From IMG/VR virus record IMGVR_UViG_2919380674_000001, positions 15,963-79,962 of that record: a DNA stretch of 64,000 nucleotides; one strand, 5' to 3'. Source of the DNA: a virus (Duplodnaviria; Caudoviricetes). The notes beneath the pieces are model-generated. The model made no database searches. It saw only the letters and a program-made list of their open reading frames with translations, and was not told where the DNA came from. The stretch's first letter is position 1. The number at the start of each line of letters is the position of its first letter. Positions 6,060 through 61,596 of the stretch are shown here, in pieces. The position numbers were made by a program, and so were the translations under genes.

Positions 6060-6219
6060 GGGTTTTTCGCCTTTGCGCCAAAAGGTGTCAAGAACAGCGG
6101 ATGCATTTGCCTGTTTCGGCCTGCAATACTGTAGGTGGTTGAAAAGTAGGAGAAGCCCCAAGAACCCACACACACGGGAATCTTGGGGCTTCACCACATC
6201 CAGTGGGAAGGAGCCAGCG

Positions 6220-41073: not shown

Positions 41074-42201
41074 TCAACATTCCTCCGGTGCCCATACGGT
41101 GAGAGCTACAGACGTGTCTGAGACCAGCTTCTTACGTGGTCGGTCAACAACAATTGCGACAGAGTGCTTGGCGCGGGTTACTGCGACGTAGAATGAACAG
41201 GCGCTTTTGTCGTCGAGCTGCTGGTTCTTAAGGCAGAAATCCTGAATGGACTTCGTTGCGAGGATCATTACGCGTTCATAGGTGCGCCCTTTGGCGACCC
41301 CGAAGTTGATGGGGTGAAGCGCAGCTTGATCTTTCCACGATGCTTTTGAGTGGCGCAGGATGGTTGGCGCAAAGGCGGTGTAGTAACTTTCAAGGTCTTG
41401 TTTGGCTACAAGAAAGACGCCGTTATGAGATGAGCTCTCGTGCATCAACGATATGGTTGGAGCAAATTCGAGGCTTGCAGGAAAGATGGTGTCTGAGAAT
41501 TCAGCAATAGCCTGGTTGAACCGATACGTTTCGGTTTTTTCTGTGATTTGTAGACATCCTTGCTTCTCGAACGCTCGATACCAATGGACAAGGTTTTGAC
41601 GGTCTGCGCCTTTGTTCCTGTTTGATGACAGGCTACTGTCGAGTAGTGATTGGCGGCTGTCTCCCACAATTAGGCATCGAACATTTTCCTGCTTGAGGAG
41701 CTGGGCGATGACATCTAAGCCGCTACGGCTGATATCCTGGGCTTCATCGATAAGTATTTCGTCATATATTTGTGAGAGACGATTCTCTACAAGGCCATTA
41801 GCCTTGAGCATGATCTGTGTGGCAAGTTCTTCCAGATGATCTTTGTAAACGAGCCCATTTGTGGTGAAGTATCTCTGTGGGTCGGTTTTCTTTATGTACC
41901 GAATCTTTGCACGCGCTTCACCGGCATCAAAGATGAAACCATTGATCCTCTGCTTGGGGAACGCTAAGGGCAAGTAGGGACGGACTACGTGATGTAGGAG
42001 AAAGGCGTACCAGCCTTCTATCTCGGGGAAACGTCCAGATTGCGTAGTGCTAGTTTTAAGACGTCCTTCAATCTCGTCTTGACCGGCGAGTGTTAACGTG
42101 AGAATCAATCTCCGTGTATCGGCTTTCTCTTGTGCACAGTGGTCAATGATGTGCTGAGTCTTTCCCGACCCTGCACATGCATGAATGAAATGGTGCTTCA
42201 T
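41074..42201 (-). CDS. gajB: UvrD-like helicase, Gabija GajB
   Basis: ACAGSGKT, IDEAQD, VGDSRQ, AKGRTY, YVAVTRAK; coupled to an OLD nuclease. Confidence 0.8.
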   Translation of the reverse strand: MKHHFIHACAGSGKTQHIIDHCAQEKADTRRLILTLTLAGQDEIEGRLKTSTTQSGRFPEIEGWYAFLLHHVVRPYLPLAFPKQRINGFIFDAGEARAKIRYIKKTDPQRYFTTNGLVYKDHLEELATQIMLKANGLVENRLSQIYDEILIDEAQDISRSGLDVIAQLLKQENVRCLIVGDSRQSLLDSSLSSNRNKGADRQNLVHWYRAFEKQGCLQITEKTETYRFNQAIAEFSDTIFPASLEFAPTISLMHESSSHNGVFLVAKQDLESYYTAFAPTILRHSKASWKDQAALHPINFGVAKGRTYERVMILATKSIQDFCLKNQQLDDKSACSFYVAVTRAKHSVAIVVDRPRKKLVSDTSVALTVWAPEEC

Positions 42202-46801: not shown

Positions 46802-46805
46802 CGCC

Positions 46806-48689
46806 CTACAGCCTCTCAATCACAGACACGATACGACCAGATTTCAGCACCGAGAGGTTTTTCTTCAACTCATGCATCACCGAAAACGTCACTGAATACC
46901 CAAACACCACAACCCGAGAAACCGCAAGATCCCCGTTCTCAAGCAGGCGAACAAGCTCCACCACGTCATCACTCGTCAAACCCGGAGAGATGATATAAGC
47001 AGAATCTCCGCACACATCCAGCTCGTAGCTCTCCAGCCGCACTTTCTCAGCAGAGGTTGTTAGCCCGTAACCGTCCTTCACCAACCACGTCGCCAACACA
47101 GTGTCATGCCCGGGCGTACCGTTCAGGTCGAATTTTGAGACATAATCCCCAGCTAGCAACGTACCGTCCTGCTTCGGATCAAACGTCAGCAGATCATCAA
47201 GAACCTGCCCAGACGGCTCCTCCAAACGATACAAGCGGAACCCATAATCAATATCCGCACCAGTCTCACCCTTAATCTTCGCAGCAGCACGCTTAATCCG
47301 CTCACGACCAATCTCGTCAATCGTGCGGTAACCAGCATCATAAGCAGGTTTCTTAGGATCAATACACTCTGGCAATTGAACGAGAATAAAGCGACGATTA
47401 CCATTATCTTCAGCGTTGAGTTGCATCAAAGCATCAGCTGTTGTTCCAGAGCCAGAGAAGAAATCCATTATCACAGCTGAGGAGTCCCAGTGGAGTGAGA
47501 TTAGATATTTAACTAGAGCAGTCGGTTTTGGCTGTGAGAACACCTTATCTGAATTAAGTAGAGCCGCAAGTTCCTTTGTCCCATGGCTGTTATATCCCAC
47601 GTCTTCAGTTCGCAAAAGGGCGTCGCCAGGCTGTCCTTCCTGTACTGTCCACAAGTACCGCTTAGCAGAAGGATTGCCGTCTTTGGAGAAAACAATCTGT
47701 CCGGTCGCCTCCATCGATCTGAGCGTTTCTTCTGAGTACCTTGGGAAAGATCCTTCTGGTGCTGTCCAGATAATCCCATTCTTAAAGGTGTACGTGTACG
47801 GCTTCGCATAGTTTCGTGCGTAGATCGGATCTAATTTATATGGCCCTTTACCGTCCTGGTCATCACGGTTGTATGCCTTTGATTTGTCGTACTTTGCGCG
47901 CAGTCGAAACCGATCGTCGCTAACGTATGTATCCCTATTTGTGAGGCTAACTACGACAAAATCTGTATTTTCATTCATATCTTCGGAACTATTGCGAACG
48001 GTATGCAAAGCTTTTCGAGTAAGCGTTGCGACTGCATTTTGTTCTCCGAAAATCTCATCGCAGAGTAGTCTCAGATTCGCAAGTTCATTGTTGTCGATAC
48101 TGATGAATATGACTCCATCGTCGGAAAGCAACTGTTTAGCGAGCTGGAGACGCGGATACATGAAGGTGAGCCACGCGGAATGTGAGGACTTGCCTTGAAG
48201 GTCAAGTACTCGTTCTGCTTCGTCTTCGCTGAGACCGATCTTGTCGACAAGCTGTGCAGATGTGAATCCGAAGTCGTCGTTGTAGATGAACCCATCGGAG
48301 CCTGTGTTGTAGGGCGGGTCGATGTAGATGCACTTGACTTTGCCTGCATAGGAGCCGAGCAGGTGTTTGAGGGCGTCGAGGTTGTCGCCGACGATATAGA
48401 GGTTTTCGGAGTCCTTGTTTTCCGGTTGGCTATTGTGCTCTAGATCTGGAACGACAACAGTTTCAGTCTCAGTGGAAGTTAGATACTTGGCATAGGATTT
48501 ACCAAGGAATTTCAGTTCGTAGCCCTCTTTAGTAAGGTTTACCCCCCCCCGCGTGAGGCAGGCTTGGAATTTATCGAGCATAAACTCGCCGTCTTTGTCG
48601 AAATACTCTGGCAGTGTTGCACGCAGCCGCTCGATGTCAAATTCGTTCGGGGTAACGGTTTCGTTGTATTCGTGAGCGTCACGGATCAT
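46806..48689 (-). CDS. mod: Type III methyltransferase subunit (m6A)
   Basis: GDNLDALK, IYIDPPYNTG, WLTFMYPRL, DFFSGSGTT. Confidence 0.93.
   Translation of the reverse strand: MIRDAHEYNETVTPNEFDIERLRATLPEYFDKDGEFMLDKFQACLTRGGVNLTKEGYELKFLGKSYAKYLTSTETETVVVPDLEHNSQPENKDSENLYIVGDNLDALKHLLGSYAGKVKCIYIDPPYNTGSDGFIYNDDFGFTSAQLVDKIGLSEDEAERVLDLQGKSSHSAWLTFMYPRLQLAKQLLSDDGVIFISIDNNELANLRLLCDEIFGEQNAVATLTRKALHTVRNSSEDMNENTDFVVVSLTNRDTYVSDDRFRLRAKYDKSKAYNRDDQDGKGPYKLDPIYARNYAKPYTYTFKNGIIWTAPEGSFPRYSEETLRSMEATGQIVFSKDGNPSAKRYLWTVQEGQPGDALLRTEDVGYNSHGTKELAALLNSDKVFSQPKPTALVKYLISLHWDSSAVIMDFFSGSGTTADALMQLNAEDNGNRRFILVQLPECIDPKKPAYDAGYRTIDEIGRERIKRAAAKIKGETGADIDYGFRLYRLEEPSGQVLDDLLTFDPKQDGTLLAGDYVSKFDLNGTPGHDTVLATWLVKDGYGLTTSAEKVRLESYELDVCGDSAYIISPGLTSDDVVELVRLLENGDLAVSRVVVFGYSVTFSVMHELKKNLSVLKSGRIVSVIERL
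48542..48550 (-). repeat. G9 homopolymer inside the 5' end of mod
   Basis: C9 on the + strand; encodes R-G-G-V in frame. Confidence 0.8.
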
Positions 48690-48940
48690 TGTGCGATCTC
48701 CTGTTCGTTTGGGACGACTTCGCAGATGTCGTTTATGTCGCATTCTAGGGCGGTGCAGATCCTGGCGAGGACGTCTGTGGTGACGTTGCCATCACGTCCT
48801 AGTTTGGCGATGGTGGCTGGTGATAGGCCGGTTGCGTGGCGTAGGTCTTCTCGGGTCATGTCGCGGTCGATGAGGAGTTTCCACAAGGGTTTGGAGGTGA
48901 TGGTCAATTGGGTTCGGCTCCTTGTGTGGTGGTTGTTCAA
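48686..48940 (-). CDS. XRE/HTH_26 transcriptional regulator
   Basis: KPLWKLLIDRDM, LSPATIAKLG, VLARICTALECDINDI; ATGA overlap with mod. Confidence 0.88.
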   Translation of the reverse strand: MNNHHTRSRTQLTITSKPLWKLLIDRDMTREDLRHATGLSPATIAKLGRDGNVTTDVLARICTALECDINDICEVVPNEQEIAQ

Positions 48941-49352: not shown

Positions 49353-50906
49353 TTACTGGGCTCCAATCTCGGTGCCGTCTTTAAACATCACGGCTGCGTG
49401 CCCGTCAGGGGTGATGTTGATTCGTTGGCACAGGGCGTGAAAAGTGGCGGGGCCGAATTCTCCTGCTGTATCTAGGTCGGTGAGGGTGCGGCGATATTTG
49501 GCAAGTTCGGCTTTGAGTCCTTTGCGCCGCTCAATCTCAGCTTGGGTAGCGTTGTAGGCGTCGATTGCTTGTTGTTGTCTTGCTTCGAGCTGGGCGAAAG
49601 CGTGCTGGTATTCGCTCTGGTCTTGCGCCTGGGTGGCGTTGGCGCTGATGGCTTGCCGGATGAGTTTGGTGCAGGCCTCGATCTCAGCTGCTTGTGTGAT
49701 AGCGGTTGCCTCTAGCTCGGTGGTGTCGGTGAGCGTGGTTTCGAGCAAGTCCCAGTCGATGAGGTTGCGGCGTTTAAGCAAGGTGGCAAGCGCGGTTAGA
49801 AAGATATGTTCGAGTTGCTTATCACGCAGGATGGGCATTTGGGCGGGATGTGGGCTGCGGCATTTGTGGTTGCATTGCCAGATCACGGTTTTGTAGGCAT
49901 CGGTGGAATGCCAGGTTTTGCTCCCGTAAGTGCGTCCGCAGTGGGTGCAGAAGATCTTGCCGGTAAAGACGCGTTCTCTTCTGCCGATGCCGCGCGCATT
50001 GAATTCGGCTTGGGCAAGCTCCCACGTTTCGGGATCAATGATGGCTGGGTGTGAGCCGGTCACATAGTATTGGGGTACCTCGCCTTCGTTGATCTTTTTG
50101 GTTTTGGTGAGGAAGTCGACGGTGAACGTCTTTTGCAGGAGCGCGTCACCTTTGTATTTTTCGTTGGTGAGGATGGGTTGGATGGTGGTGTGGCTCCAGC
50201 GGGTTTTGCCACGCGGGGTGAGCACGCCGTCAGTATCGAGCGCGGCGGCGATTTGTGGGATGCTCATGCCTTCAAGGTAGTGGCGGTAGATCCGGCGCAC
50301 GGTTTCGGCCTGTTCGGGGTTAATAACCGGGCTACCGTCTGAGCCGCGCTTGTAGCCGAGGAAGTTTTTGAAGGGCATATTTACTTTCCCGTCGGAGAAG
50401 CGTTTGCGCTGTCCCCAGGTGACGTTCTCGCTAATAGAGCGTGATTCTTTTTGGGCAAGGCTGGACATGATGGTGATCAAGAGTTCGCCTTTAGAATCGA
50501 GTGTCCAGATGTTTTCTTTTTCGAAGAACACCTCCACACCCTTATCTTTCAAGGCGCGGACGGTGGTGAGGGAGTCGACGGTGTTGCGAGCAAACCGGCT
50601 GACGCTTTTTGTGACGATCAGGTCGATTCTGCCGCTCAGGGCGTCGGTGACCATCTGGTTGAAGCCGTCGCGGTGTTTGATGCTCGTGCCGCTGATGCCT
50701 TCGTCAGTGTAGATACCTGCATACTGCCAGCCGTCGTGGGAGCGAATATAGTGCTCGTAGTAATCCACCTGGGCGGCATAAGAGTTGGCTTGGTCAGCAT
50801 CATCTGTGGAGACGCGGGCATAGCCTGCGACCCGGCGGATGTTGGGCAGGGCGTGGTTGCCAGAGTGTAGGGGTTTGGTTGCTGGGATCGCGGTGATTTT
50901 TGGCAT
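49353..50906 (-). CDS. Large serine recombinase B'
   Basis: AGYARVST, KSVSRFARN, NEKYKGD; paralogue of 38833-40413. Confidence 0.92.
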   Translation of the reverse strand: MPKITAIPATKPLHSGNHALPNIRRVAGYARVSTDDADQANSYAAQVDYYEHYIRSHDGWQYAGIYTDEGISGTSIKHRDGFNQMVTDALSGRIDLIVTKSVSRFARNTVDSLTTVRALKDKGVEVFFEKENIWTLDSKGELLITIMSSLAQKESRSISENVTWGQRKRFSDGKVNMPFKNFLGYKRGSDGSPVINPEQAETVRRIYRHYLEGMSIPQIAAALDTDGVLTPRGKTRWSHTTIQPILTNEKYKGDALLQKTFTVDFLTKTKKINEGEVPQYYVTGSHPAIIDPETWELAQAEFNARGIGRRERVFTGKIFCTHCGRTYGSKTWHSTDAYKTVIWQCNHKCRSPHPAQMPILRDKQLEHIFLTALATLLKRRNLIDWDLLETTLTDTTELEATAITQAAEIEACTKLIRQAISANATQAQDQSEYQHAFAQLEARQQQAIDAYNATQAEIERRKGLKAELAKYRRTLTDLDTAGEFGPATFHALCQRINITPDGHAAVMFKDGTEIGAQ

Positions 50907-52156
50907 CAGTGGTTCACCTCCAATCCAGTGCGGTAATCAATTGTCGTGCTTCTCCCGTCGGTGTGGTGGATGGTGAGGAGCCAATCGGGCGTAGCTTCAA
51001 TGCGCTCAACCTGTTCAATGACGGTTTTGTCATCCGAATCGGCTAGATCCAAGGCGGTGCAGATGATGGCGCGTATCTTTTCCTCGCGGAGTTGGTGGGC
51101 TTTGCATGGATTGCCGTGGCCTTTGGTGGCGGTTTCGCACCACCAGTACTTGTATTCTCCATGGGCTTGTTTCCTGGTGCGGCGCTGATAGTGCTTGCCA
51201 CGTTGGGTGCAGGTGATGCGGTGGGTGAGTGCTCCGGTGCCTCCCGTGGGGGTCAGGCCACGCCCGCCGGATGCTCTACGTTTTGCCAGTTCTGTCTGTA
51301 CCGCGTCAAAGGTTTTGCGGTCGATGATTGGTGGGTGGGAGTCTTCTATCAGGTATTTGGTGAGTTGGCCTGTGTTGGGGCTGCTGGTGCTTTTGCCGAC
51401 GTGTGCTCGATAGTGTTTTTGGCAGATTGCATCGCCTGTGTAGGTTTCGTTTTCTAGCCATTGACGGGTCACGGATGCTCTAAACTTGCCGCCGCCACGC
51501 GAGCGTAGCCCCTCAGCATTGAGCGTGTCGACGGTTTTCTCAGGGCTAATGCCTTTGAGGAATTCATCGAATACGCGGCGCACAATCACGGCTTCTTCTT
51601 CAACGATGTCGAGCTGGCCGTGGTGGTAGCGGTATCCGTAGGGGTGGCGCGAATGCAACAGCTCATCCTTGTACTTTTTTCTGATTCCCCACTTCGCGTT
51701 AGCCGAGATAGATTCGGATTCAGTTTGCGCGAACGAGGCTAGTAAAGTGAGGAGGATTTCGCCTTCAGCGTTGGCGGTGTCAAGGTGCTCGCGTTCGAAA
51801 CGCACCGATACACCAGCAGCAGATAGTTCACGCACGGTTTCGAGGAGGTCGACGGTGTTACGGGCGAAGCGGGAGATGGATTTGGTGAGGATAATGTCGA
51901 TACTCCCTGCGAGTGCTTGCTCGATCATCTGGTTGAACTCGCCACGCCCCGTGGTAGATGTACCTGTCGTTGCGTAGTCGCTGTAGACGCCAGCGTATTC
52001 CCAGCCCGGCGTTGAGCTGATGAGCTGGTTGTAGTAGGAGACTTGCGCGGAGAAGGAATGAGTGAGACGTTCCGATTCGCGTGAGACCCGCACGTAGGCC
52101 GCCACCCGCAGGCGTTTGGTGAGTGCGGGGCGTGGGGGTAGTTTGTGGATCTCCAT
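50906..52156 (-). CDS. Large serine recombinase A'
   Basis: AAYVRVS, KSISRFARN; paralogue of 37589-38836. Confidence 0.9.
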   Translation of the reverse strand: MEIHKLPPRPALTKRLRVAAYVRVSRESERLTHSFSAQVSYYNQLISSTPGWEYAGVYSDYATTGTSTTGRGEFNQMIEQALAGSIDIILTKSISRFARNTVDLLETVRELSAAGVSVRFEREHLDTANAEGEILLTLLASFAQTESESISANAKWGIRKKYKDELLHSRHPYGYRYHHGQLDIVEEEAVIVRRVFDEFLKGISPEKTVDTLNAEGLRSRGGGKFRASVTRQWLENETYTGDAICQKHYRAHVGKSTSSPNTGQLTKYLIEDSHPPIIDRKTFDAVQTELAKRRASGGRGLTPTGGTGALTHRITCTQRGKHYQRRTRKQAHGEYKYWWCETATKGHGNPCKAHQLREEKIRAIICTALDLADSDDKTVIEQVERIEATPDWLLTIHHTDGRSTTIDYRTGLEVNH

Positions 52157-52198
52157 TCTTGCTTCCTTTTGGATCAATATCGGTGTATTTCCTTGCTT

Positions 52199-52399
52199 CT
52201 ATACATCACTCTGTTCGCGCCATTTATCCAGTTGCTGTGGCAATAACAGCGCCATAATCGCAGGCTGATACGAACCGATGAGAGCCTCTCGTACCCGCTG
52301 ATAATCAGCCTGAAAGATAGCACCAGCTACGCGGAGTTTTTCGGCATGTGCGAGCGTGACCCTGCAGACTGCCTCATGGTTCATCTGAATCGCTTTCAT
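52199..52399 (-). CDS. Small SHOCT-like protein
   Basis: MKAIQMNHEA...; same position as 37327-37515. Confidence 0.5.
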   Translation of the reverse strand: MKAIQMNHEAVCRVTLAHAEKLRVAGAIFQADYQRVREALIGSYQPAIMALLLPQQLDKWREQSDV

Positions 52400-52584
52400 G
52401 CCGTGCCCCTGTGGGTAACGTAGCAGGCATGAGTGCAGTACTTTCGGGTCTTGTTGCCGTAGGCAGTGAATGTGGTTGCGCAGCCAGCGCAGGTAAAGGT
52501 GTAGATAGCAGTGCGCCTTTTCGCGCCTCAGGGTGTGCTTTCCACCAGGCACGCCGATGCTCCTCACTAAAAAACACGGTTTCT
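52396..52584 (-). pseudogene. 3' half of the zinc-finger gene
   Basis: EEHRRAWWKAHPE, then in a shifted frame YTFTCAGCATTFTAYGNKTRKYCTHACY; matches 36917-37330. Confidence 0.75.
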
Positions 52585-53580
52585 CATCAGCCGAGAGCAG
52601 AGTTTTGTGATGGCTTGTTCCCGCCTGATGACCCACGGGTCGAGCGTGTACTTCACAAACTCCAAGCTCTGCTGCTCAATATTGCTAAAAGAGCTTTTCT
52701 CTAAATCGCCGACCATGTGCGGAGGGATACGGAAAATCCGGGCAATCTCGTTGATCTGAAACTTCCGTGTCTCGAGAAACTGTGCCTGCTCAGGCGAAAT
52801 CCCTATCGGGGTGTATGTCATGCCCTCCTCAAGCACCGCAATCTTATTGCTGTTCCTAGCTCCACCGAAGGTCTGCTGCCAGGACTCACGGGCTGGATCT
52901 TTGATCATGCCAGGATGCTCGAGCACACCACCAGGAGCCGCACCATTAGCAAAAAATGAAGCCCCGTATTCTTCGGTGGCGATAGCAAGCCCGATAGCGT
53001 TTTTCGCCATCGCAATCGGCGAATAACCCACCAAACCATCAAAACCAAGATCTGGAATATGGAGCACATCCGCCGCAGTCAAGGTGACTTTACGGGGCTG
53101 ATCCACATTGGGTTCGTCGCCAGTGCGAGTATAGACGTACTCAAGCTCACCGTTATCGTTCCTGCCTACTTGCATCCGGTTCGGCATCAACGGATACAAC
53201 CCGAGTACCTCGCCCTTACCATTCCTAATGACTTGGGCGTAGGCGTTACCCCAGAGCAGCAAGTGTGTCATAAGGGTCTCACGGAAGACGAAGCTGGTCA
53301 TTTCAGGGTTCGGCTCATCATGCAACAACACATACAACGGATGCTCCAAGGCTTTGCTCCGTCTGCCGTCGTCCTCGTAGCGATACACGTGCAACGGCAA
53401 ACCAGCAATCGCCTCACTCAAGATCCGCACGCACGCATAGACCGCAGTCATCTGCATCGCCGAGCGTTCCGTCACCGGCTTACCCGCAGAGGTGGGGCCG
53501 AACATAAACGAATATGACGACCCAATCGTGTGATTCTCGAATAATTTCGATTTAGGGCGTAGCAAATTCAAGAGTCTCAC
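52567..53580 (-). pseudogene. Portal gene, 3'-truncated
   Basis: Matches portal 21236-22540 up to EQAITK/LLSADEKP, then fuses to the zinc-finger relic. Confidence 0.85.
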
Positions 53581-53768
53581 GTATATCTCCCTAAGCTGTG
53601 TATAAAGAACTGATGCCCCTAACACAGCCAATAAGGCAGTAAGGAGCACCAGCTCAAAAATTGTTCAGTTATCGACAGTAAGACGATTTACCTAGACATA
53701 CGGAAACTCCCTGAACTCCATTACTCGGCATCGGTTCTTAGTCGTAGATAAGCTGCTTCGAAATGACA

Positions 53769-53960
53769 TTATTCGTCAATTCCTTTTTTCTGGCGAAAAT
53801 ACCCAATGCCTAAAACTGTCACTCCAAGCAACAGTGATGGAAAAGCAATACTCAGCACTGTACGTAAAGGGAAAATAACCAGAGCTAACAAAGAAAACAG
53901 GCAAACAACCAATGCAAAAGTCAGTAGGCCGACCAACAGTTCATGCATAGTACGCGGCAT
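53769..53960 (-). CDS. Small 2-TM putative immunity protein
   Basis: TAATG coupling to the upstream precursor; hydrophobic with a basic tail. Confidence 0.6.
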   Translation of the reverse strand: MPRTMHELLVGLLTFALVVCLFSLLALVIFPLRTVLSIAFPSLLLGVTVLGIGYFRQKKGIDE

Positions 53961-54607
53961 TAGGCTCTCCACCAATTCCATGCCTCTTTTGCGGCACAAC
54001 CGACAGCGTAAACGCCTAACCATGCAGCAAATCCTGCTGGAGTTGACTTAATGATTTGCTTAAGAACAATATCGCCACCCTTTTTAGTGATCTCTTTCTT
54101 AGCATAACGCTTAAGTAAATCAGCGACTTTGTTCCAAGACTTTTCGTAAATGTATTTACCAAATAGATTGTAATCAATTTGGAAGGGTGAAAAACCAAGA
54201 ACTCCCGTCACCACACATGATCCGAACGAACCCCAGCTGCGATCTGAATGTGCATCTACATACGGATTGTCGGAAGCTCCATTTAGTGAGTTAACGATAA
54301 GAGTAAGCTGCTCAGAACTTCCACCAAAACCATATTCAGCAGCCAGTCTTTCGTCTATAACGAACTTCGCTCCATCATGCTTGATGACATCACGAAATAG
54401 CACCACAAAACTATCTGCTGTGGCATCAGCGAATTCCTCAATTTCAGATTCTGTAAGCGAGCTGTCCCACTCTGCATTATGAAGCTGTGATGCAACGGTA
54501 GTAGAATGCTGCGCTTCTGTAGCATTTGCAACTCCGACTACTGTAAACGATAGTGTAAGGGTGCAAATACTTGCTGTTGCTAACTGTGCAACTTTACGTA
54601 GTTTCAC
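53960..54607 (-). CDS. Secreted bacteriocin-like precursor (SA-M57/dysgalacticin-like)
   Basis: Signal peptide ending VANA; DRSWGSFGSC...KSWNKVA...GFAAWLGVYAVGC; AAGGAG RBS. Confidence 0.62.
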   Translation of the reverse strand: MKLRKVAQLATASICTLTLSFTVVGVANATEAQHSTTVASQLHNAEWDSSLTESEIEEFADATADSFVVLFRDVIKHDGAKFVIDERLAAEYGFGGSSEQLTLIVNSLNGASDNPYVDAHSDRSWGSFGSCVVTGVLGFSPFQIDYNLFGKYIYEKSWNKVADLLKRYAKKEITKKGGDIVLKQIIKSTPAGFAAWLGVYAVGCAAKEAWNWWRA

Positions 54608-54688
54608 CTTCGTACTCCTTTTGTCATGTCACATCATTATGACCCGTTCACAACACAGTAATTTAATATGTGCTGCAATCCCCTCTTT

Positions 54689-54746
54689 GGATACTGCTAG
54701 TTAAGCATTTCTTGCTAGTGCTACAACACCGATAAATGTCAGGGTG
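54689..54746 (-). promoter_or_regulatory. Conserved cassette promoter with one palindromic box
   Basis: CCGATAAATGTCAG at 54729-54742 within a block shared with 56279-56340 and 59904-59983. Confidence 0.75.
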
Positions 54747-54748
54747 TG

Positions 54749-54973
54749 CTAAATAAACAACAGCCCGCGCTCGTCATACACCGATTCGCTAGCCTCGTCG
54801 CCGTTTCGAATCGCTCGGTCTAACGCCATGATGAGTGCGACGATGCCGTCGATTTTCTCGGTGGACTTGGCTTTATCGGGCTTGATGTTGCCTGCCGGGT
54901 TTTGCCGCACCGTAATGTTGTCTGCCATCCACGCCAATACTGGGTGACCGCCGTGCGTGATCCTGCCTTCTAA
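54749..54973 (-). pseudogene. Orphan 3' fragment of terminase large subunit
   Basis: LEGRITHGGHPVLAWMADN...VYDERGLLFI. Confidence 0.9.
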
Positions 54974-54985
54974 TAGTATTAGAAC

Positions 54986-55033
54986 TAGCTAGTGGGTGAC
55001 CCCAAGTTATTCGCTGGGGTCACCCACTAGCTA
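54986..55033. terminator. 19-bp perfect hairpin after the cassette
   Basis: TAGCTAGTGGGTGACCCCA / TGGGGTCACCCACTAGCTA. Confidence 0.75.
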
Positions 55034-55068
55034 TAAATAATAGTTAAGTGCGCGGGGGAGCTGCTTGA

Positions 55069-55257
55069 CTACGCAGGGTCTCTAGGCCGCAAAAGCACCA
55101 TTGCAGCAATGCATGTTAGAGAAACCAACGCCCACCCCCGTCCATAAAGAAAAGTAAGCGGGACAGACACAGTAGCAACGGTTCCAAGAACGGTGATCGC
55201 TATAACTTTCCAAACCCTATAGAAAGATCGCTTCAGATTAGTAGTAATCAGCTTCAT
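55069..55257 (-). CDS. Small 2-TM putative immunity protein
   Basis: GAGG RBS directly after the precursor stop; MKLITTNLKRSFYRVWKVIAITV. Confidence 0.6.
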   Translation of the reverse strand: MKLITTNLKRSFYRVWKVIAITVLGTVATVSVPLTFLYGRGWALVSLTCIAAMVLLRPRDPA

Positions 55258-55267
55258 TTCCAATCCT

Positions 55268-56185
55268 CTACAGCTGAAAACATCCAACTACTGCCGCCAT
55301 GCCACCAGCGCCGAGGGTGGCATAACCGCCAATACACGCTGCGCAGACGACTTTAGACGCTGTGGGTTCTGGAAATGCACAAGCGCCTGCGCACGCAGCA
55401 GCAATGGCCCATGCCGCTATCCCACCAACGCCCGTTGCCGCAGCCAAACATGCCGCGATTTTCCCTATAGACCGCTCCTGACTCAGGCTTGCTGCAGCCT
55501 CATCTGCCTTAGCCTTTAGATTCTGCATTTCCAGTTTCATTGCATCGTTATCAATGAATTTAACTCCAAGATCTTTGGATCGGATAAACTTCCCATCCAC
55601 CCACTGCTCCATCCACAGGTTGCCGTTTTCCCCTTCAAAGTAGAGCGTCTCGGCGTAGTTGGAAATAGCACCGTTTTCTTCATAGACAACAGTAAAATTA
55701 CTAATTGGGCTATAACCTTCAACAGGGATAGCAACAGTCGTGAACACTCTACCTTGTTTTTGCATTTTCAAAGCCACTGCAGCGTCGAAGTTTAGCTGCT
55801 CCACTGTCGAGGAGATTTCAATCTTTTTCAAGGAAGCATCCTGCTTAACGCGATTAAGCGCGACCTCCCGCTGAGTTCCAATAAGTTCGCTTGATCTGTC
55901 TGGTGCGTTTTCAGTGATTGAGCATTGGGGACTTTGGGGGTCACGTTGCTCCGTAGTTCCTATGTGCATCGCAGAAACTGCATACCCATCTCGAGACATA
56001 TGCGAAGAATAGTTAGTATCGAAAGTCCGGTTTAACACGCGACCTATAGATTCAGCCACCTCCGCATGAGCGGGTTTCGCAGGTATGGTTTCCGCACCGG
56101 AAGCAAAACCAGTGGCACCCAGAACAAGAGCCCCAGTAGTGATCAACGTTACGCTTGCATAAAAGAATTGTTTCGTGGATCTCAT
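55268..56185 (-). CDS. Secreted precursor with a Cys-rich hydrophobic C-terminal bacteriocin-like domain
   Basis: Signal peptide; long pro-region; QER-SIGKIAACL...AAACAGAC...VCAACIG...GCFQL (6 Cys). Confidence 0.6.
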   Translation of the reverse strand: MRSTKQFFYASVTLITTGALVLGATGFASGAETIPAKPAHAEVAESIGRVLNRTFDTNYSSHMSRDGYAVSAMHIGTTEQRDPQSPQCSITENAPDRSSELIGTQREVALNRVKQDASLKKIEISSTVEQLNFDAAVALKMQKQGRVFTTVAIPVEGYSPISNFTVVYEENGAISNYAETLYFEGENGNLWMEQWVDGKFIRSKDLGVKFIDNDAMKLEMQNLKAKADEAAASLSQERSIGKIAACLAAATGVGGIAAWAIAAACAGACAFPEPTASKVVCAACIGGYATLGAGGMAAVVGCFQL

Positions 56186-56278
56186 CTTTGTTTCCTTTTG
56201 TCATACCACCGTTGGTGATGGGCTGTGCAGCTTGGGAATATGGGCTGCGATCTCCTCTTAGGATACTAATAGGTAACC

Positions 56279-56340
56279 ATTTCTTGCTAGTGCTACAACA
56301 CCGATAAATGTCAGGGTGCGACCCTGACACATATCGGTGT
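56279..56340. promoter_or_regulatory. Divergent promoter with a double palindromic box
   Basis: ACACCGATAAATGTCAGGGT-GCG-ACCCTGACACATATCGGTGT, an 18/20 inverted repeat. Confidence 0.8.
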
Positions 56341-56408
56341 CGAAAAGCCATAGCAGGCTAGTAAGTTCGAAGAGTACAAGAAAAAGCGGACGATGTAGAA
56401 AGGGTGCG

Positions 56409-56626
56409 GTGACAGAAATGGTAGGATTGACGCGGAGAGCTAGTTCTCGTTTGATGGCTCTAGTAGTTGCTGGGCTGTTGGGTTTGGGGTGGCTATCCCA
56501 CCGAGCACGGTTGTGCTTGCTAGCGAACTAGAAACCACCACAACAAGCGTTGCAACAGTCAAAGCATACTATGGTAACCTGTTGTGTACGTTACTTCCTA
56601 AACTGCCTGGTTGCAAGAAAAACTAG
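56409..56626 (+). pseudogene. Candidate secreted signalling-peptide precursor, split by a 1-nt frameshift in GGGG (56486-56489)
   Basis: GAAAGGG RBS + GTG; adding one G gives a 72-aa peptide with signal sequence and ...YYGNLLCTLLPKLPGCKKN, whose stop abuts the kinase start. Confidence 0.6.
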
Positions 56627-56628
56627 TG

Positions 56629-57765
56629 ATGTTCAAAGTCATTAAGCGCCATCTATACCCGCGCGCAAGCAGCTATAAGCTAGCCTATTTACTAACTGCT
56701 GCACTTATTATGATTTTTGAACTCATTATTCATCTCTCACCTCCCTTTTTCGACACTTCAACTATCTGGGTTTTAGCTTTCCTCTGTATAGCACTAGCTG
56801 CAGCCCCTTGGCTAGGAACTATTGGCGATTTATTTTTTTCCCTTGCTTATATCGCGATAGGGTTGGCTGAATTTGATTCATCGCTGTCATTTCCGACATT
56901 CGGCATTACCTTGATCGTGGCCGTATGGATCATAAATCACCATACGATCAGAGCCTCCATACTACTTGGCGGTGTGGCACTGCTGTCCTTGTGGCAAAAT
57001 GATGACCTCCCATTCCAGCTAGTTAGTGAAATCCTCGTGGCAGTGTTGGTTTTTACTATTGCTTTACTGCTCCGATCCTCATTCGACAAGGCCAGCGAAT
57101 CTGAGCGCGAGATTTCCAATGCACGTCGAGCATCACGCGAAGCAGTAGCCTCAATCCGAACCGAATTGGCTGCCCAGTTACATGACACGATTGCGAAGGA
57201 TCTTGCTCAAGTGGCCATATTGGTGCAGAACATGGCTGCAGCGCATCCTGAGCTTGCTGACGAGATTGATCCGATCACAAATATTACCCAGGGTGCTTCT
57301 CGCCGGTTACGTCCAATGATTATGGATCTGAACCAAACCGTGGCTGCGCCGAGTTTTCGGGTAGCGGTGACAGAATCCGCAGTGATGTTACGCTCCCGCA
57401 GCATGGTGTTGAAGGTGGAGATGGCGGCTGATATTGACCATTTGCTTTCTCGTCAGGCTTTGCTCACAGCGTCACTGTTTGTGCGTGAGACCGCCACGAA
57501 TGTGTTGAAATATGGGCAATCCTCGACCAGTGTCGAGCTTTATGTGGATCTTGAGGGGAGCGAGCTGGCGTTAATGATGAGGAACCAGATTAGCACCGAG
57601 CCGATCGATCGCACGCTCACTGGTGGGTTTGGGTTAGCCAATTTGCAATCCCGGATTGAGAGCGAGGGCGGGCGTATGAGTTTCACTTCTACCGGTGCCC
57701 GCTGGATTATTAGCGCTGCTATTCCTAACCTCAATCCTAGCATTACAGGAGGTAGCGATGAGTGA
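56629..57765 (+). CDS. Membrane sensor histidine kinase (HisKA_3, NarX/DesK type)
   Basis: Multi-TM N-terminus; ELAAQLHDTIA H-box; ETATNVLKYG N-box; GGFGLANL G2-box. Confidence 0.9.
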   Translation: MFKVIKRHLYPRASSYKLAYLLTAALIMIFELIIHLSPPFFDTSTIWVLAFLCIALAAAPWLGTIGDLFFSLAYIAIGLAEFDSSLSFPTFGITLIVAVWIINHHTIRASILLGGVALLSLWQNDDLPFQLVSEILVAVLVFTIALLLRSSFDKASESEREISNARRASREAVASIRTELAAQLHDTIAKDLAQVAILVQNMAAAHPELADEIDPITNITQGASRRLRPMIMDLNQTVAAPSFRVAVTESAVMLRSRSMVLKVEMAADIDHLLSRQALLTASLFVRETATNVLKYGQSSTSVELYVDLEGSELALMMRNQISTEPIDRTLTGGFGLANLQSRIESEGGRMSFTSTGARWIISAAIPNLNPSITGGSDE

Positions 57766-58417
57766 GGATATTCGCGTCCTACTGGCCGATGATGATCAGA
57801 TCATTCGTGATGGCCTAGCTAATTTGTTGAACCTACAAGATGGAATTACGGTGGTAACAGCCGTGGAAAACGGGCGCGCGGCACTACACGTCTTAGCTGA
57901 ACATCGAGTAGACGTGGCACTGCTGGATGTGGATATGCCTGTTCTTGACGGTATTAGGACCGCGAAAGAAATCGGGCGAATGTACCCCAATATTGCTGTG
58001 GTGATGCTGACCGCATTCGAGCACGAAGACTCACTCGCACAATCCTTAGCAAGTAATGTGCGCGGGTTTCTCACCAAAGACATTCTAGCCCCTGAGCTTG
58101 CCCAGTTAATTAAACAAGCCCACAGTGGTCAGCGTGTGTTCGGACCGCGCCCCACCCAGATACTCGCAGAATCTTATATGGTATACAGTAAAAACGATCC
58201 TACCTATGACGATTTCCGCCAAAAAGTAGAGCAGCTCCCAAACTATCTACGCTCCGTATTCGATTTGCTCATCCAAGCCCTACCCAACAAGATCATCGCC
58301 CGAGAGCTTGGGATTACTGAAGCTACCGCACGTTCGTACATTTCTGAACTCTTCACAGCTACCGGCTTTACCAATCGAGGTGAACTCACCGTCACTGCCG
58401 TCAAAGCTGGATACTAA
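57758..58417 (+). CDS. NarL/LuxR-family response regulator
   Basis: LLADDD, LLDVDMPVLDG, LTAF, FLTK; C-terminal NKIIARELGITEATARSYIS. Confidence 0.93.
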   Translation: MSEDIRVLLADDDQIIRDGLANLLNLQDGITVVTAVENGRAALHVLAEHRVDVALLDVDMPVLDGIRTAKEIGRMYPNIAVVMLTAFEHEDSLAQSLASNVRGFLTKDILAPELAQLIKQAHSGQRVFGPRPTQILAESYMVYSKNDPTYDDFRQKVEQLPNYLRSVFDLLIQALPNKIIARELGITEATARSYISELFTATGFTNRGELTVTAVKAGY

Positions 58418-58591
58418 TCTGTCAAGCATACGAGCTGGAGGGTACAAGCCAACTTGAACCCGCCAGCCGAAGAAGAAACAAAACAGTATTAATTACGATC
58501 GTTATTCCGTTTCCTTACGAAGGATCAATGTTTTCGGAATAGCCAGTACCGCTGCTGCGAGCATGATGAACTCGGCATAAGCTTATAGAGA

Positions 58592-58627
58592 AGAGTCCCT
58601 CAGAATTGTGCGATCCTGAGGGACTCT
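58592..58627. terminator. Hairpin between the convergent regulator and cassette
   Basis: AGAGTCCCTCAG / CTGAGGGACTCT. Confidence 0.7.
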
Positions 58628-58781
58628 AGGGTATAGGAGATGCCTACATTACATTTCTAGATTGCGTTCCAATTTGATCCGTTTCTGTTTAACCGAGATA
58701 GGCAAACGTACACAGTAAGACGTAGATCTTACCAGTGTAATGATTTTGGAATATAAACTTAGTTAAACTCGTTATTGATAC

Positions 58782-59108
58782 TTACACCCCTCTTTGTTTT
58801 TCGCGATAGTTTCGCCCGTAAATATATGCCACCATGATGATGAGTATTGTAAACCGAGTCCAAGAGGAATTTTGAATGGTAATCAAACCGATTGTGGAAG
58901 CCATATACAGTAGTGACCAGAAAACCTCAGAGAGACTTTCTTGAAAACGTCTGTAGATACTCCACACCGCAGTGGCAGTGAGAATTGCAATCATTGCTAG
59001 ATTGTGAAATTCATTCCATTTGGAGGTGGTCAAGTCGCTTGCAAGAAAGATCAGGGATGATGCCCACAACATCTCAGGGACTATTGCACTAGCACTAGTC
59101 TTGTTCAT
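58782..59108 (-). CDS. 4-TM putative immunity protein
   Basis: Starts 20 nt downstream of the precursor; hydrophobic with a basic tail. Confidence 0.58.
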   Translation of the reverse strand: MNKTSASAIVPEMLWASSLIFLASDLTTSKWNEFHNLAMIAILTATAVWSIYRRFQESLSEVFWSLLYMASTIGLITIQNSSWTRFTILIIMVAYIYGRNYREKQRGV

Positions 59109-59128
59109 TTCAATATACCCCCATCGAA

Positions 59129-59824
59129 TTACTCGCCTTCGATTTCCACAGTGATTGGTGGGATTGCCCAATCAGAGTAGAAGGTAATACCTTTACCTTG
59201 ATGAAGAGCCCCAACTACTTTCGCGGCAATATTTGCGAAAAATTGTCCACCTAAAACAGCAGTTGCGATGCCTGCTACCGTTCCGAGTGGGCCGGCAAGT
59301 GATGTCAATAATGGCCAAACAGCAGCAACAGCTGCAGGTCCTGCTTCAGCTGCAGTTGCCAAGAATGCAAATGTTCCGGCTTGTAAATCAGCATTGGAGA
59401 TGTGAAAGAGGCGGGCTGCACGATCACTACTGGATGTTGAGGTTCTTTCAATGATGTTTATTGCTGGTGCTTGACCAGAAGCAAAACTATGAAGAAGTTT
59501 CACTTGGTCAGCGGTAAAATGGTATTCGTCATGCAGCTCTACATCTGTTGCGGTGATAGAGAACTTTCCTGGTGCGGTAATGCTGCTTTTCAGCACAGGA
59601 TTTGCTTGTGCTATTTTTGCTGCAAATTCTATTGCTTGGGCTTCTGTGAGTGTGATTGATTCAGTTGGAGTTACGTCCTTGTCAAGCTCAGATAACGAAG
59701 TAATGTGAATCGCATTTAAACTATTCGACAGATTGGCAGCGTTCGCAATACCTGTTACCGAAACAGATAACGCGATCGTGCATATACTAGCAACCGTAAA
59801 TTGTGCAATTCTGTGTAGTTTCAT
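59129..59824 (-). CDS. Secreted precursor with a Gly/Ala-rich hydrophobic C-terminal domain (bacteriocin-like)
   Basis: Signal peptide closely similar to that of 53960-54607; AEAGPAAVAAVWPLLTSLAGPLGTVAGIATAVLGG; GAAAGGA RBS. Confidence 0.55.
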   Translation of the reverse strand: MKLHRIAQFTVASICTIALSVSVTGIANAANLSNSLNAIHITSLSELDKDVTPTESITLTEAQAIEFAAKIAQANPVLKSSITAPGKFSITATDVELHDEYHFTADQVKLLHSFASGQAPAINIIERTSTSSSDRAARLFHISNADLQAGTFAFLATAAEAGPAAVAAVWPLLTSLAGPLGTVAGIATAVLGGQFFANIAAKVVGALHQGKGITFYSDWAIPPITVEIEGE

Positions 59825-59903
59825 AATAATGTTTCCTTTCGTCATACCACCGTTGGTGGCGGGTTACGCAGCTTGGGGATATGGGATGCAATCTCCTCTT
59901 AGA

Positions 59904-59983
59904 GATACTGCTAGTTAAGCATTTCTTGCTAGTGCTACAACACCGATAAATGTCAGGGTGCGACCCTGATATTCGTCAGGGTG
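59904..59983 (-). promoter_or_regulatory. Conserved cassette promoter with two palindromic boxes
   Basis: CCGATAAATGTCAG (59943-59956) and CTGATATTCGTCAG (59966-59979) with a 9-bp spacer; directly after the terL stop. Confidence 0.78.
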
Positions 59984-59985
59984 TG

Positions 59986-61596
59986 CTAAATAAACAACAG
60001 TCCGCGCTCGTCATAGACTGACTCGGCGTCATCGTCGCCGCCGTTTCTGAGTGCCCGGTCGAGCGCCATGATGAGGGCGACGATGCCGTCGATTTTCTCG
60101 GTGGATTTGGCTTTGTCGGGTTTGATGTTGCCTGCGGGGTCTTGCCGGACGGTGATGTTGTCTGCCATCCACGCGAGCACCGGGTGCCCGCCATGCGCCA
60201 ATCGGCCTTCGAGGGCTAGTTTCATCAGTTCCTTCGAGGGTGGGCTCATGTCTTTAAATCCCTGCCCGAAAGGAACAACAGTGAAGCCGAGTCCTTCGAG
60301 GTTCTGCGACATTTGGACGGCGCCCCACCTGTCGTAGGCGATTTCCCTGATGTTGTATCTGAGGTCGAGTTGTTCGATTTCGTGCTCGATATGGTCGTAG
60401 TGCACGACGTTGCCCTCAGTCGTTTCGAGAAAGCCTTGCCGGTGCCACAGGTCATAAGGGACGTGATCCCTTGCTACGCGCAGATCCAATGTGTCTTCTG
60501 GAAGCCACAGCTTCGGCAGAATCCAATACGGCTCGTCCGGCTCGATGGGCGGGAACACCAAAACGAATGCCGTAATGTCGCTTGTGGATGACAGGTCGAG
60601 TCCGCCGTAACAAACCCGCCCTTCGAGAGCTTTATCGTCTACGGGTGCGTTGTTTTGGTTCCAGACGTTCATGGGCATCCAGCGCACTTCTTGCTTCACC
60701 CACTGATTGAGCCTGAGCTGCCTGAAAGAGTTTTCTTCGGCGGGGTTTTGCTTCGCGGACTCGCACGCATCACGCACCTTGTCGAGGGTGACGGTGATGC
60801 CAAGGGAGGGGTTGGCTTTGCGCCACACCTGCTCGTCTGTCCAGTCCTCGTTCATGTCGGCACCGTAGATGACGGGATAGAACCTGGGGTCGTGCTTTTT
60901 GCCTGCCAGGATGTCGAGGGCTTTCTGATGCTGCTCGTAGCAAATACTGTGGGTGTCCGAACCGGCCGTAGTGATGAGGAAATAGAGCGGCTGGGTTCTC
61001 GCGTCACCGGAGCCTTTCGTCATCACATCAAACAGCTTGCGGTTCGGCTGGGTGTGTAGTTCATCGAAGACCACGCCTGAGATGTTGAACCCGTGCTTGG
61101 AGTAGGCTTCAGCGGAAAGCACCTGGTAGAAGCTGTTGGTTGGGGTGTAGATGATGCGTTTTTGGGAGCGTAGGATTTTCACACGTTTCGCTAATGGTGG
61201 GCACATGCGCACCATGTCTGCTGCCACTTCGAACACGATTGAGGCTTGCTGCCGATCCGCCGCGCACCCGTACACCTCGGCACGTTCCTCACCGTCAGCG
61301 CAGGTGAGTAGCAGTGCGATAGCGGCGGCGAGTTCGCTCTTGCCTTGCTTCTTCGGTATTTCCACATACGCTTGGGTGAATTGGCGGTATCCGTCGGGTT
61401 TGAGGGTGCCGAACAGGTCGCGGATTATTTGTTCCTGCCAGCCCAGCAGCTCGAAACGTTTGCCAGCCCAGCGGCCTTTCGTATGTGTGAGCGCCTCGAT
61501 GAACGCTACCGCATAATCCGCTGCCCGCTTATCGTAATGGGAGGAGGGCGCGGCGAAGCGAGTGGGCACGTATTGCTCAAGTTTGCGCATCGCCAT
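59986..61596 (-). CDS. terL: Terminase large subunit (second element)
   Basis: EIPKKQGKSE, VFDELH, GGLDLSST; paralogue of 18580-20184. Confidence 0.95.
   Translation of the reverse strand: MAMRKLEQYVPTRFAAPSSHYDKRAADYAVAFIEALTHTKGRWAGKRFELLGWQEQIIRDLFGTLKPDGYRQFTQAYVEIPKKQGKSELAAAIALLLTCADGEERAEVYGCAADRQQASIVFEVAADMVRMCPPLAKRVKILRSQKRIIYTPTNSFYQVLSAEAYSKHGFNISGVVFDELHTQPNRKLFDVMTKGSGDARTQPLYFLITTAGSDTHSICYEQHQKALDILAGKKHDPRFYPVIYGADMNEDWTDEQVWRKANPSLGITVTLDKVRDACESAKQNPAEENSFRQLRLNQWVKQEVRWMPMNVWNQNNAPVDDKALEGRVCYGGLDLSSTSDITAFVLVFPPIEPDEPYWILPKLWLPEDTLDLRVARDHVPYDLWHRQGFLETTEGNVVHYDHIEHEIEQLDLRYNIREIAYDRWGAVQMSQNLEGLGFTVVPFGQGFKDMSPPSKELMKLALEGRLAHGGHPVLAWMADNITVRQDPAGNIKPDKAKSTEKIDGIVALIMALDRALRNGGDDDAESVYDERGLLFI

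Follow-up and report, generated by a model that had tools for sequence, protein, structure and literature searches.

The window analysed here, a stretch of 64,000 nucleotides (nt) corresponding to positions 15,963 to 79,962 of the IMG/VR virus record IMGVR_UViG_2919380674_000001, is part of a complete 2.03-Mb genome (G000) and contains, at positions 56409-56626, the frameshifted gene of a prepeptide of about 72 amino acids (aa). This is the first gene of an operon that continues with the genes of a sensor histidine kinase and a response regulator. It seems rather probable that the product of the intact gene is an autoinducing peptide, exported by the Sec route and probably closed by a disulfide, that is sensed by the adjacent kinase and that drives, through the regulator and a set of repeated DNA boxes, its own operon and three neighbouring cassettes coding for secreted and membrane proteins.

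The gene is split between two reading frames. The list of open reading frames (ORFs) contains a single one over its N-terminal part, a 64-aa frame at 56337-56531, as the original prediction on this DNA had stated and as the reading frames of the window bear out. Read from a GTG at 56409, which is better placed than the start at 56337, this frame (frame A) codes for 40 aa and stops at a TAG at 56529-56531. The second part (frame B) ends in ...LLCTLLPKLPGCKKN, with the Cys codons of the loop at 56585-56587 and 56612-56614, and its TAG stop (56624-56626) leaves a 2-nt gap to the ATG of the kinase gene (56629); the Thr-rich spacer, the terminal C-X8-C and a stop 2 nt short of the kinase start had all been described beforehand and are present in the window. 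It had also been predicted that one base added to the GGGG run would fuse the two frames into one peptide, and a natural ORF, whose product equals the predicted repaired peptide, confirms it: in the closest relative examined (G001, Arcanobacterium hippocoleae CP136412.1), which is 99% identical over 401 nt (56300-56700), one base more is found at the break (GGGTTTAGGGG versus GGGTTT-GGGG in the window) and the ORF is uninterrupted, giving a prepeptide of 72 aa. The extra base and the intact 72-aa ORF occur in three natural relatives, namely G001 and contigs of two metagenome runs, X2 (a bovine gut metagenome) and X3, in whose public contigs over 56250-57250 a G is inserted behind 56485; the choice between A and G at this position is synonymous (TTA or TTG, both Leu). 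These runs contain 0.26 (X2) and 0.37 (X3) of the sampled words and were used solely for their contigs over the locus. By codon reading, the X3 peptide is that of G001, and the X2 contig, which differs from the window by 39 substitutions over 978 nt, encodes a peptide with seven amino-acid and six synonymous changes, in which the frame is kept and a Gly is replaced by Phe inside the loop.

The pairing of such a peptide gene with a kinase gene is recurrent. When the 16 genomes of the genus were searched with the kinase, 20 matches had E <= 1e-30; they fall into 19 distinct loci in 6 genomes, and the 420 nt upstream of each locus were translated. At 12 of the 19 loci the kinase is preceded by an intact ORF of 59-86 aa that runs up to the kinase start and codes for a hydrophobic segment at the N-terminus and a C-X8-C near the C-terminus; the upstream ORF is frameshifted at one (the window) and degenerate at another (L034), the kinase itself is 5'-truncated at two (L021 and L033), and three full-length kinases (L020, L028 and L031) have no upstream peptide. 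Comparable ORFs in front of homologous kinases, on which the original prediction had staked its case, are therefore present at most loci of the genus, and they were also found in a genome of another genus of the same family (G355) and in a metagenome contig (L044), which brings the number of intact cassettes seen to 14. In all of them a small peptide gene, a membrane histidine kinase gene and a response regulator gene follow one another in one operon, and in 10 of 11 cassettes the distance from the peptide stop to the kinase start is between -19 and +13 nt, which suggests translational coupling. In G355, a 71-aa ORF ending in ...ILCWLTYGRYGCKF overlaps the gene of a 384-aa kinase, followed by the regulator. 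The peptide of contig L044 is identical to that of a Gardnerella vaginalis record (P0018); its gene overlaps that of a 383-aa kinase by 16 nt, and then comes a 219-aa regulator. Further on, genes for a secreted protein (201 aa) and a membrane protein (69 aa) are transcribed in the direction of the operon. For the Gardnerella-type peptide, the adjacency to a kinase comes from this one contig. The L044 regulator is 66% identical to that of the window.

In an alignment of 18 peptides, the only invariant columns are the two Cys, and their spacing is constant although identity to the window-type peptide is no more than 21-57%; for comparison, a C-X8-C-X1-8 ending is present in 195 of the 13,061 six-frame ORFs of 40-120 aa of the genome (1.5%). 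The loop has the consensus C-x-L-F-P-x-L-P-x-C, with a short, mostly basic tail behind it. Conservation is limited to the last ~16 residues, the spacer before them being of low complexity and variable in length. All members start with a basic n-region and a hydrophobic core of 12-17 residues followed by a Pro, and A-x-A-like features can be recognised by eye in the alignments; cleavage sites were judged in the same way, VLA/SE in the window type and AFA/SE in G008 (a genome with the orthologous cassette) being matching candidate sites. A profile built from 12 of the peptides had 16 matches among 1.84 billion representative proteins, 12 of which are proteins of 67-108 aa, all with C-X8-C; the other four (P0002, P0007, P0010 and P0014, of 515-6469 aa with 7-12 matching stretches each) were dismissed as low-complexity without inspection. 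The cluster records of the family come from Arcanobacterium, Gardnerella vaginalis and Corynebacterium riegelii, and the named members (from A. hippocoleae, G. vaginalis and C. riegelii) are all called "hypothetical protein". The family appears to be sparsely distributed: in an order-wide six-frame profile search, which scored 15 candidates per genome and hence measures rarity in the sample and not absence, 2 of 401 evenly drawn genomes matched, G000 and G355.

Other copies of the system lie elsewhere in G000. An intact third cassette (a 68-aa peptide and a 385-aa kinase) is found at G000:C1:1108720-1110069, and a truncated kinase gene with an intact regulator gene at G000:C1:1293330-1294509. 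Just past the right end of the window, G000:C1:80912-81828 codes for a fragment of a paralogous kinase; the fragment is interrupted by a TGA and lacks an upstream peptide, and a double palindrome (ACCAACGAATGTCGGT, 7 nt, ACCGACATTCGTCGGT) lies in front of it.

The DHp and catalytic core of the kinase contains an H-box (LHDTIAKDL, with His185), and H185, N291, G333 and G335 are invariant in the kinase alignment, whose profile matches the DesK structure 3gig_A over positions 165-369 (E 3.3e-12). Judging from these features and from its hydropathy, it is a kinase of the DesK-like (HisKA_3) class with a multi-helix membrane sensor. The response regulator matches the NarL model at 3.3e-33, under the equivalog cut-off. 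Neither AgrB (PF04647) nor a C39 peptidase (PF03412) was found in G000, a genome that is 99.8% complete, and because of this the Sec route is the simplest one for the prepeptide. The 18-peptide alignment contains no double-glycine leader and no conserved Trp. With respect to oxidation, G000 encodes one VKOR and two DsbA-like proteins of the thioredoxin fold, and the conserved oxidoreductase that acts on exported proteins in many Actinobacteria has been described as MdbA (PMC9974433). Sec export and disulfide oxidation of the peptide would hence be feasible with the predicted gene content of the strain.

The course that we infer runs from export and cleavage through disulfide closure and kinase binding to the induction of box promoters. 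In strains with an intact allele, the prepeptide would be exported through its N-terminal Sec-type segment and cut after VLA; the two invariant Cys, 8 residues apart, would be closed into a 10-residue disulfide ring by the oxidation system for exported proteins, and the variable Thr/Ser/Glu-rich spacer would perhaps be trimmed afterwards. The multi-helix membrane domain of the DesK-class kinase, whose gene begins 2 nt downstream, would then sense the hydrophobic ring and the basic tail; the kinase would phosphorylate the NarL-type regulator, and the latter, acting on the 20-mer boxes, would induce its own operon (a positive feedback) and the three secreted-protein/membrane-protein cassettes. 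In the window strain, the change from G5 to G4 would end the prepeptide within its signal segment, and the strain would make no signal while keeping kinase, regulator and cargo intact, that is, it would be a signal-null responder.

A comparison of the window with the orthologous cassette of G008 shows where the locus diverges. The box, the promoter and the signal segment are 80% identical in DNA (61% in protein for the signal part of the peptide); identity falls to 44-62% over the exported peptide (46% in protein) and to 42-57% over the sensor domain of the kinase, with one 60-nt bin at 72% (38% in protein), and rises again to 70-88% over the catalytic core (71% in protein) and the regulator (82% in protein), with a dip to 49-63% at the junction with the kinase gene. 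The low-identity block over exported peptide and sensor, seen in this one orthologous pair, resembles the hypervariable signal-receptor block of pherotype systems. Sensor identity is below catalytic-core identity in both measured pairs (G008 and L044), and between the window and L044 the exported part of the peptide is 40-50% identical and the signal part 18%.

The palindromic box lies between the divergent gene of a 305-aa secreted protein and the peptide operon. With 3 mismatches at most, its 20-mer is present at four places of the 2.03-Mb genome, all of them within this locus: two in the palindrome, and one each at 54726 and 59940. The ~110 nt that separate each box from its minus-strand gene are likewise conserved. 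As RNA, the palindrome has a predicted fold of -30.8 kcal/mol; a DNA-binding site is favoured over an RNA fold because two of the three box copies are half-sites only, and the 43-bp palindrome is a candidate operator of the NarL-type regulator. Of 12 cassettes, 8 have related ACCGAC-N4-GTCGGT pairs (up to 3 mismatches) on the upstream side of the peptide start, at a distance of 74-241 nt, and in L044 a box nearly identical to the window 20-mer (ACACTGACAAATATCAGGGTG, at 6080-6100) is located ~115 nt upstream of the secreted-protein gene. A promoter scan gave 6 matches against 9.3 expected, none of them at the operon, and a search of 54600-60000 with Rfam gave one chance-level match, far under the gathering score. 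Behind the boxes stand three pairs of genes (Table 1), each coding for a secreted protein and a small membrane protein. No Pfam, PHROG or NCBIfam family was found for the 305-aa and 238-aa proteins; the former has a Cys/Gly/Ala-rich C-terminal module that is also present in 15 proteins, unnamed or called "hypothetical", among them some of Corynebacterium sanguinis and C. mycetoides. The 215-aa protein matches the EntV family NF058576 over profile positions 11-162 of 162 (E 2.5e-8), at 34.1 bits versus a cut-off of 130, and would be at most a distant EntV relative. By their layout, the three cassettes look like bacteriocin-immunity pairs.

Table 1. Features of the peptide-kinase-regulator locus (positions in the window)
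Feature	Positions	Strand	Remarks
Shine-Dalgarno-like GAAAGGG	56398-56404	+	4 nt 5' of GTG; GAAAGG kept in G008
Prepeptide gene, 5' part (frame A)	56409-56531	+	basic n-region and hydrophobic core, then out of frame to TAG; intact G001 counterpart at L016:2639-2854:-
G4 run, site of the 1-nt deletion	56486-56489	+	AGGGG in G001, GGGGG in X2 and X3
Prepeptide gene, 3' part (frame B)	56489-56626	+	45 aa; VLA/SE end of signal-like segment, Thr/Ser/Glu-rich spacer, C-X8-C loop, KKN tail
Sensor histidine kinase	56629-57765	+	378 aa; N-terminal ~165 aa nearly all hydrophobic helices with short loops (hydropathy)
NarL/LuxR-type response regulator	57758-58417	+	219 aa; 8-nt overlap with kinase stop; Response_reg 5.9e-26, GerE 2.5e-5
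43-bp palindromic box	56298-56340	.	20-mer ACACCGATAAATGTCAGGGT, 3 nt, inverted copy; 20-nt arms 90% complementary
Box half-site	54726-54745	+	~119 nt upstream of the 215-aa secreted-protein gene
Box copy	59940-59982	+	exact 20-mer and degenerate second arm; ~95 nt upstream of the 238-aa secreted-protein gene
Cargo cassette 1	58782-59845	-	238-aa secreted protein (59129-59845), then 129-aa membrane protein (58782-59171)
Cargo cassette 2	55069-56185	-	305-aa secreted protein (55268-56185), then 72-aa membrane protein (55069-55287)
Cargo cassette 3	53769-54607	-	215-aa secreted protein (53960-54607), then 84-aa membrane protein (53769-54023)

Several observations weigh against a secreted autoinducer acting through this kinase and these boxes. 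The kinase taken as a single sequence scores 18.3 bits with the Pfam HisKA_3 model, whose cut-off is 24; the three full-length homologous kinases without an upstream peptide have already been mentioned, and some paralogous peptides have no clear A-x-A. The boxes are weak (4 mismatches) in 2 of 12 cassettes and none was seen in another 2, and the generic 16-bp ACCGAC-N4-GTCGGT is not enriched genome-wide (22 matches versus 53-70 in shuffled sequences). The cargo proteins are unannotated save for the one sub-threshold EntV match, and the sequencing runs found for the locus provide DNA contigs only. The low-identity block may merely reflect that membrane domains and small peptides evolve fast. 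Moreover, the identity of the 16-aa loop and that of the sensor are uncorrelated over 11 cassettes (55 pairs; Spearman 0.13, p 0.34; partial correlation 0.04; permutation p 0.38), and therefore co-variation is not demonstrated: the original expectation that peptide and sensor co-vary agrees with the block shared by the one orthologous pair and fails across the 11 paralogous cassettes.

The same absence of co-variation across paralogs, and the paralogs without an obvious A-x-A cleavage site, would fit a small protein that is not a diffusible signal but a membrane-anchored or secreted accessory regulator of the kinase, whose exposed Cys pair reports the redox or envelope state, in the manner of MgrB acting on PhoQ or LiaF acting on LiaS. 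A hydrophobic N-terminus, two Cys outside the cytoplasm and a gene tightly coupled to that of the kinase would be expected of such a protein as well. We regard this as unlikely, since the hydrophobic core has just ~12-17 residues, with Pro and small residues behind it, as is typical of cleaved signal peptides, and since conservation is confined to the C-terminal end behind a low-complexity spacer of variable length. In the comparison with L044 it is the exported part, and not the N-terminus, that is better conserved, and the operon has a box of its own, like autoinduction loops.

As to the frameshift, the original prediction had offered three accounts, a sequencing error, a signal-negative allele and a switch. 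In the run that is the probable source of the assembly (X1), the G4 form is present at a word depth of ~458 and the insertion at 0 of a depth of 457.9, and one X1 contig, built from 31-letter words like the others, is identical to the window over 56298-57250. Since the independently built X1 contigs agree with the window, the frameshift is present in the underlying data and not in the assembly alone; a systematic homopolymer error keeps a small probability because X1 is probably the source of the assembly and its library type is not on record. If the gene were in fact intact in the strain, and there were no signal-null allele, the miscall would have occurred at a homopolymer site (G4 versus G5); the agreement with X1, probably the same data, would not be independent, and the homopolymer difference of 1 nt that splits the kinase gene in G001 might be a further error of the same sort. 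We nevertheless judge an error of this kind to be quite unlikely, in view of the G4 form being the only one in X1 at such depth, at which a fixed G4/G5 miscall would not be expected from accurate reads. A designed phase switch is also unlikely, because the tract is only G4 or G5 long and is not conserved (AGGGG in G001 and no tract in G008). Of the three accounts, then, an error limited to the assembly is excluded by the X1 contigs, a switch has little to recommend it, and a loss-of-function, signal-negative allele fits best.

Two further observations concern the breaks in these genes. In the window, 56483-56489 reads ggT TTG GGG in the 0 frame, and a -1 slip there would yield exactly the full-length peptide; such read-through is speculative, and programmed -1 frameshifting at the break was set aside because the heptamer is non-canonical under the heptamer rule for such sites and because the relatives are simply one base longer. 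In G001, the kinase is split into 82 and 318 aa by a T6 in place of the T7 of the window (56833-56839; L004 around 3110), a position at which X2 has no indel. The near-identical loci of G001 and of the window are thus each broken by a different single base, in the receptor gene and in the signal gene, respectively.

The resemblance of the boxed neighbours to bacteriocin-immunity pairs, one of them with a weak EntV match, raises the alternative that the peptide is a small bacteriocin in its own right, dependent on Sec, or a nisin-like bacteriocin and inducer in one, that the two-component system regulates or senses for immunity. Such a role would suit a secreted peptide that is small, has two Cys and ends in a cationic tail, and the window-type peptide carries YYGN just before the loop, which we take to resemble the YGNGV motif of class IIa bacteriocins. 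The YGNGV motif is named in the literature (PMC3546714). However, YYGN is not conserved (RHPN in G008), the mature part would be short, with a mostly hydrophobic ring, there is no gene for an immunity-like protein or a transporter between peptide and kinase, and the peptide gene seems to be translationally coupled to that of the kinase in 10 of 11 cassettes, all of which makes a bacteriocin improbable. Finally, that the upstream ORFs are not genes, their C-X8-C tails being due to chance or a by-product of the kinase 5' leader, is hardly credible in spite of the prepeptide having no Pfam or NCBIfam family, of a word-based search with the intact peptide that yielded 1 match among 2 candidates in 5.8 billion proteins (a search too insensitive to define the family) and of best scores of just 0.82 in a protein atlas (with unnamed small secreted proteins of Actinomycetota, leads only), given the 14 intact cassettes, a Cys spacing that is invariant at 21-57% identity against a 1.5% background, and the frame kept in X2 through synonymous and non-synonymous changes.

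The locus is situated between the large terminase gene of a prophage (59986-61596) and a partial portal gene (52567-53649), and a duplicate of the 3' end of the terminase gene is found at 54749-54937 (163 nt, 86% identical). These phage genes belong to a prophage remnant at 49353-53649, 54749-54957 and 59986-61596, which also includes two tandem serine integrases. In G008, the orthologous cassette adjoins a split terminase gene (L042 13205-14944) and has ordinary host genes on its other side. A search of viral contigs with the kinase alignment gave 22 pattern matches and no relatives, and blastn of 53700-60000 against a phage collection matched only at the terminase remnant (query positions 1050-1264). 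A phage-borne origin of the signalling cassette was considered, and adjacency to prophage remnants is the support for it; because the phage collections contain no relative of the cassette, it is unsupported beyond that adjacency, and the locus is read as cargo beside decaying prophages and not as one with a demonstrated role for the phage. An inverted repeat at 54977-55042 (28-nt arms, 86% complementary, with a 10-nt loop) is located between the terminase remnant and the gene of the 72-aa membrane protein. Large minus-strand genes at 41074-48743 match PHROGs for a helicase, an SbcC-like ATPase and a DNA methyltransferase, and one of them, whose product has 996 aa, matches a PHROG of unknown function (phrog_11902, E 3e-155); this region, which adjoins the integrases, may be a restriction or defence island.

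Among known systems, ComX-ComP-ComA of Bacillus subtilis comes closest in architecture. Its kinase ComP, of the HisKA_3 class, has several membrane helices, and its regulator ComA is of the NarL type; here, too, a polytopic HisKA_3 kinase and a NarL-type regulator are encoded directly downstream of the peptide gene, the small peptide gene lying directly upstream of that of its putative receptor. The genes of ComQXPA are adjacent and on one strand (PMC4008528), ComP senses a modified peptide of 10 residues (PMC8895600), and ComQXPA strains divide into pherotypes (PMC4408185), of which the low-identity block over exported peptide and sensor domain is reminiscent. In contrast to ComQXPA, no ORF for a ComQ-like isoprenyl transferase is found beside the peptide gene, whose upstream neighbour is a divergently transcribed gene of a secreted protein; where ComX has a leader that ComQ removes, the peptide carries a putative Sec-type signal segment, and it has two invariant Cys but no conserved Trp that could be prenylated, and the hosts are Actinomycetota and not Bacillota.

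The agr system is based on a cyclic, Cys-dependent peptide and a polytopic kinase, with autoinduction and a hypervariable signal and sensor, and the system proposed here would share with it a Cys-dependent cyclic peptide with a hydrophobic ring, a polytopic kinase, an autoinduction loop and hypervariability of signal and sensor. The differences are the lack of AgrB in G000, a ring that would be a 10-residue disulfide and not a 5-residue thiolactone, a kinase of the DesK-like HisKA_3 class and not HPK10, and a NarL-type regulator and not one of the LytTR type. Double-glycine pheromones (ComCDE, BlpCHR, PlnABCD) follow a general scheme in which an unmodified ribosomal peptide, a kinase and a regulator control class II bacteriocins, and repeated boxes for the operon and for nearby cassettes like bacteriocin-immunity pairs are common to both; the GG leader is missing here, as is a C39-peptidase exporter in G000, and the kinase and the regulator belong to other classes. 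The Phr, AimP and PapR peptides (RRNPP systems) are exported by an N-terminal signal peptide, which the present family may have as well, and carry their active end at the C-terminus behind a variable spacer, as conservation would suggest for the present family; they are re-imported and bind cytosolic TPR receptors, whereas the adjacent genes here code for a membrane histidine kinase and a NarL-type regulator and not for a cytosolic RRNPP/TPR receptor.

A parallel for the weak EntV match is the Fsr system of Enterococcus faecalis, in which quorum sensing through a two-component system controls a Sec-exported bacteriocin precursor, enterocin O16, also known as EntV. The control of enterocin O16 by Fsr has been described (PMC5454873). 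The likeness is limited by the score of the match (34 bits versus the cut-off of 130), and Fsr is of the Agr type. MgrB, which acts on a histidine kinase, resembles the peptide in its small size, its single hydrophobic segment near the N-terminus and its pair of extracytoplasmic Cys, which is important for the function of MgrB; it is an uncleaved membrane protein, an inhibitor in a negative feedback loop that is not encoded beside phoQ, whereas the gene described here is coupled to the kinase gene, and its product has a short hydrophobic core and only its C-terminal loop conserved.

To our knowledge, most known examples of quorum sensing by peptides and two-component systems are from Bacillota. 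As far as the accessible text goes, literature searches on peptide pheromones, autoinducing peptides, disulfide peptides or histidine kinases in Arcanobacterium, Actinomycetaceae, Gardnerella or Actinobacteria gave nothing on the family, and a search on disulfide, Sec-dependent pheromones with histidine kinases gave only reviews of the bacteriocins of lactic acid bacteria. The recurring pairing of peptide and kinase suggests an undescribed family of cell-to-cell signalling. More broadly, and as a tentative proposal for which the case is almost balanced, it could represent an undescribed class of Gram-positive quorum sensing in Actinomycetota, in which an unmodified, Sec-exported, 10-residue disulfide macrocycle (closed by MdbA/VKOR) is read by DesK-class polytopic kinases, with many specificities per genus, and drives cassettes resembling bacteriocin-immunity pairs beside prophage remnants (at the two loci examined). 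The single-base knock-outs, of the signal gene in the window strain and of the receptor gene in G001, could then be social "cheater" or eavesdropper alleles.

On a practical level, the split gene illustrates that ORF tracks miss small genes that are broken by one base. If the proposed signalling is true, its chemistry would not depend on a dedicated processing enzyme, the signal being a plain disulfide ring, and the boxed cassettes would be candidate loci of regulated antagonism. The window strain would provide a natural signal-null reporter background, and mucosal actinobacteria, including Gardnerella, would possess a communication system that is directly testable.

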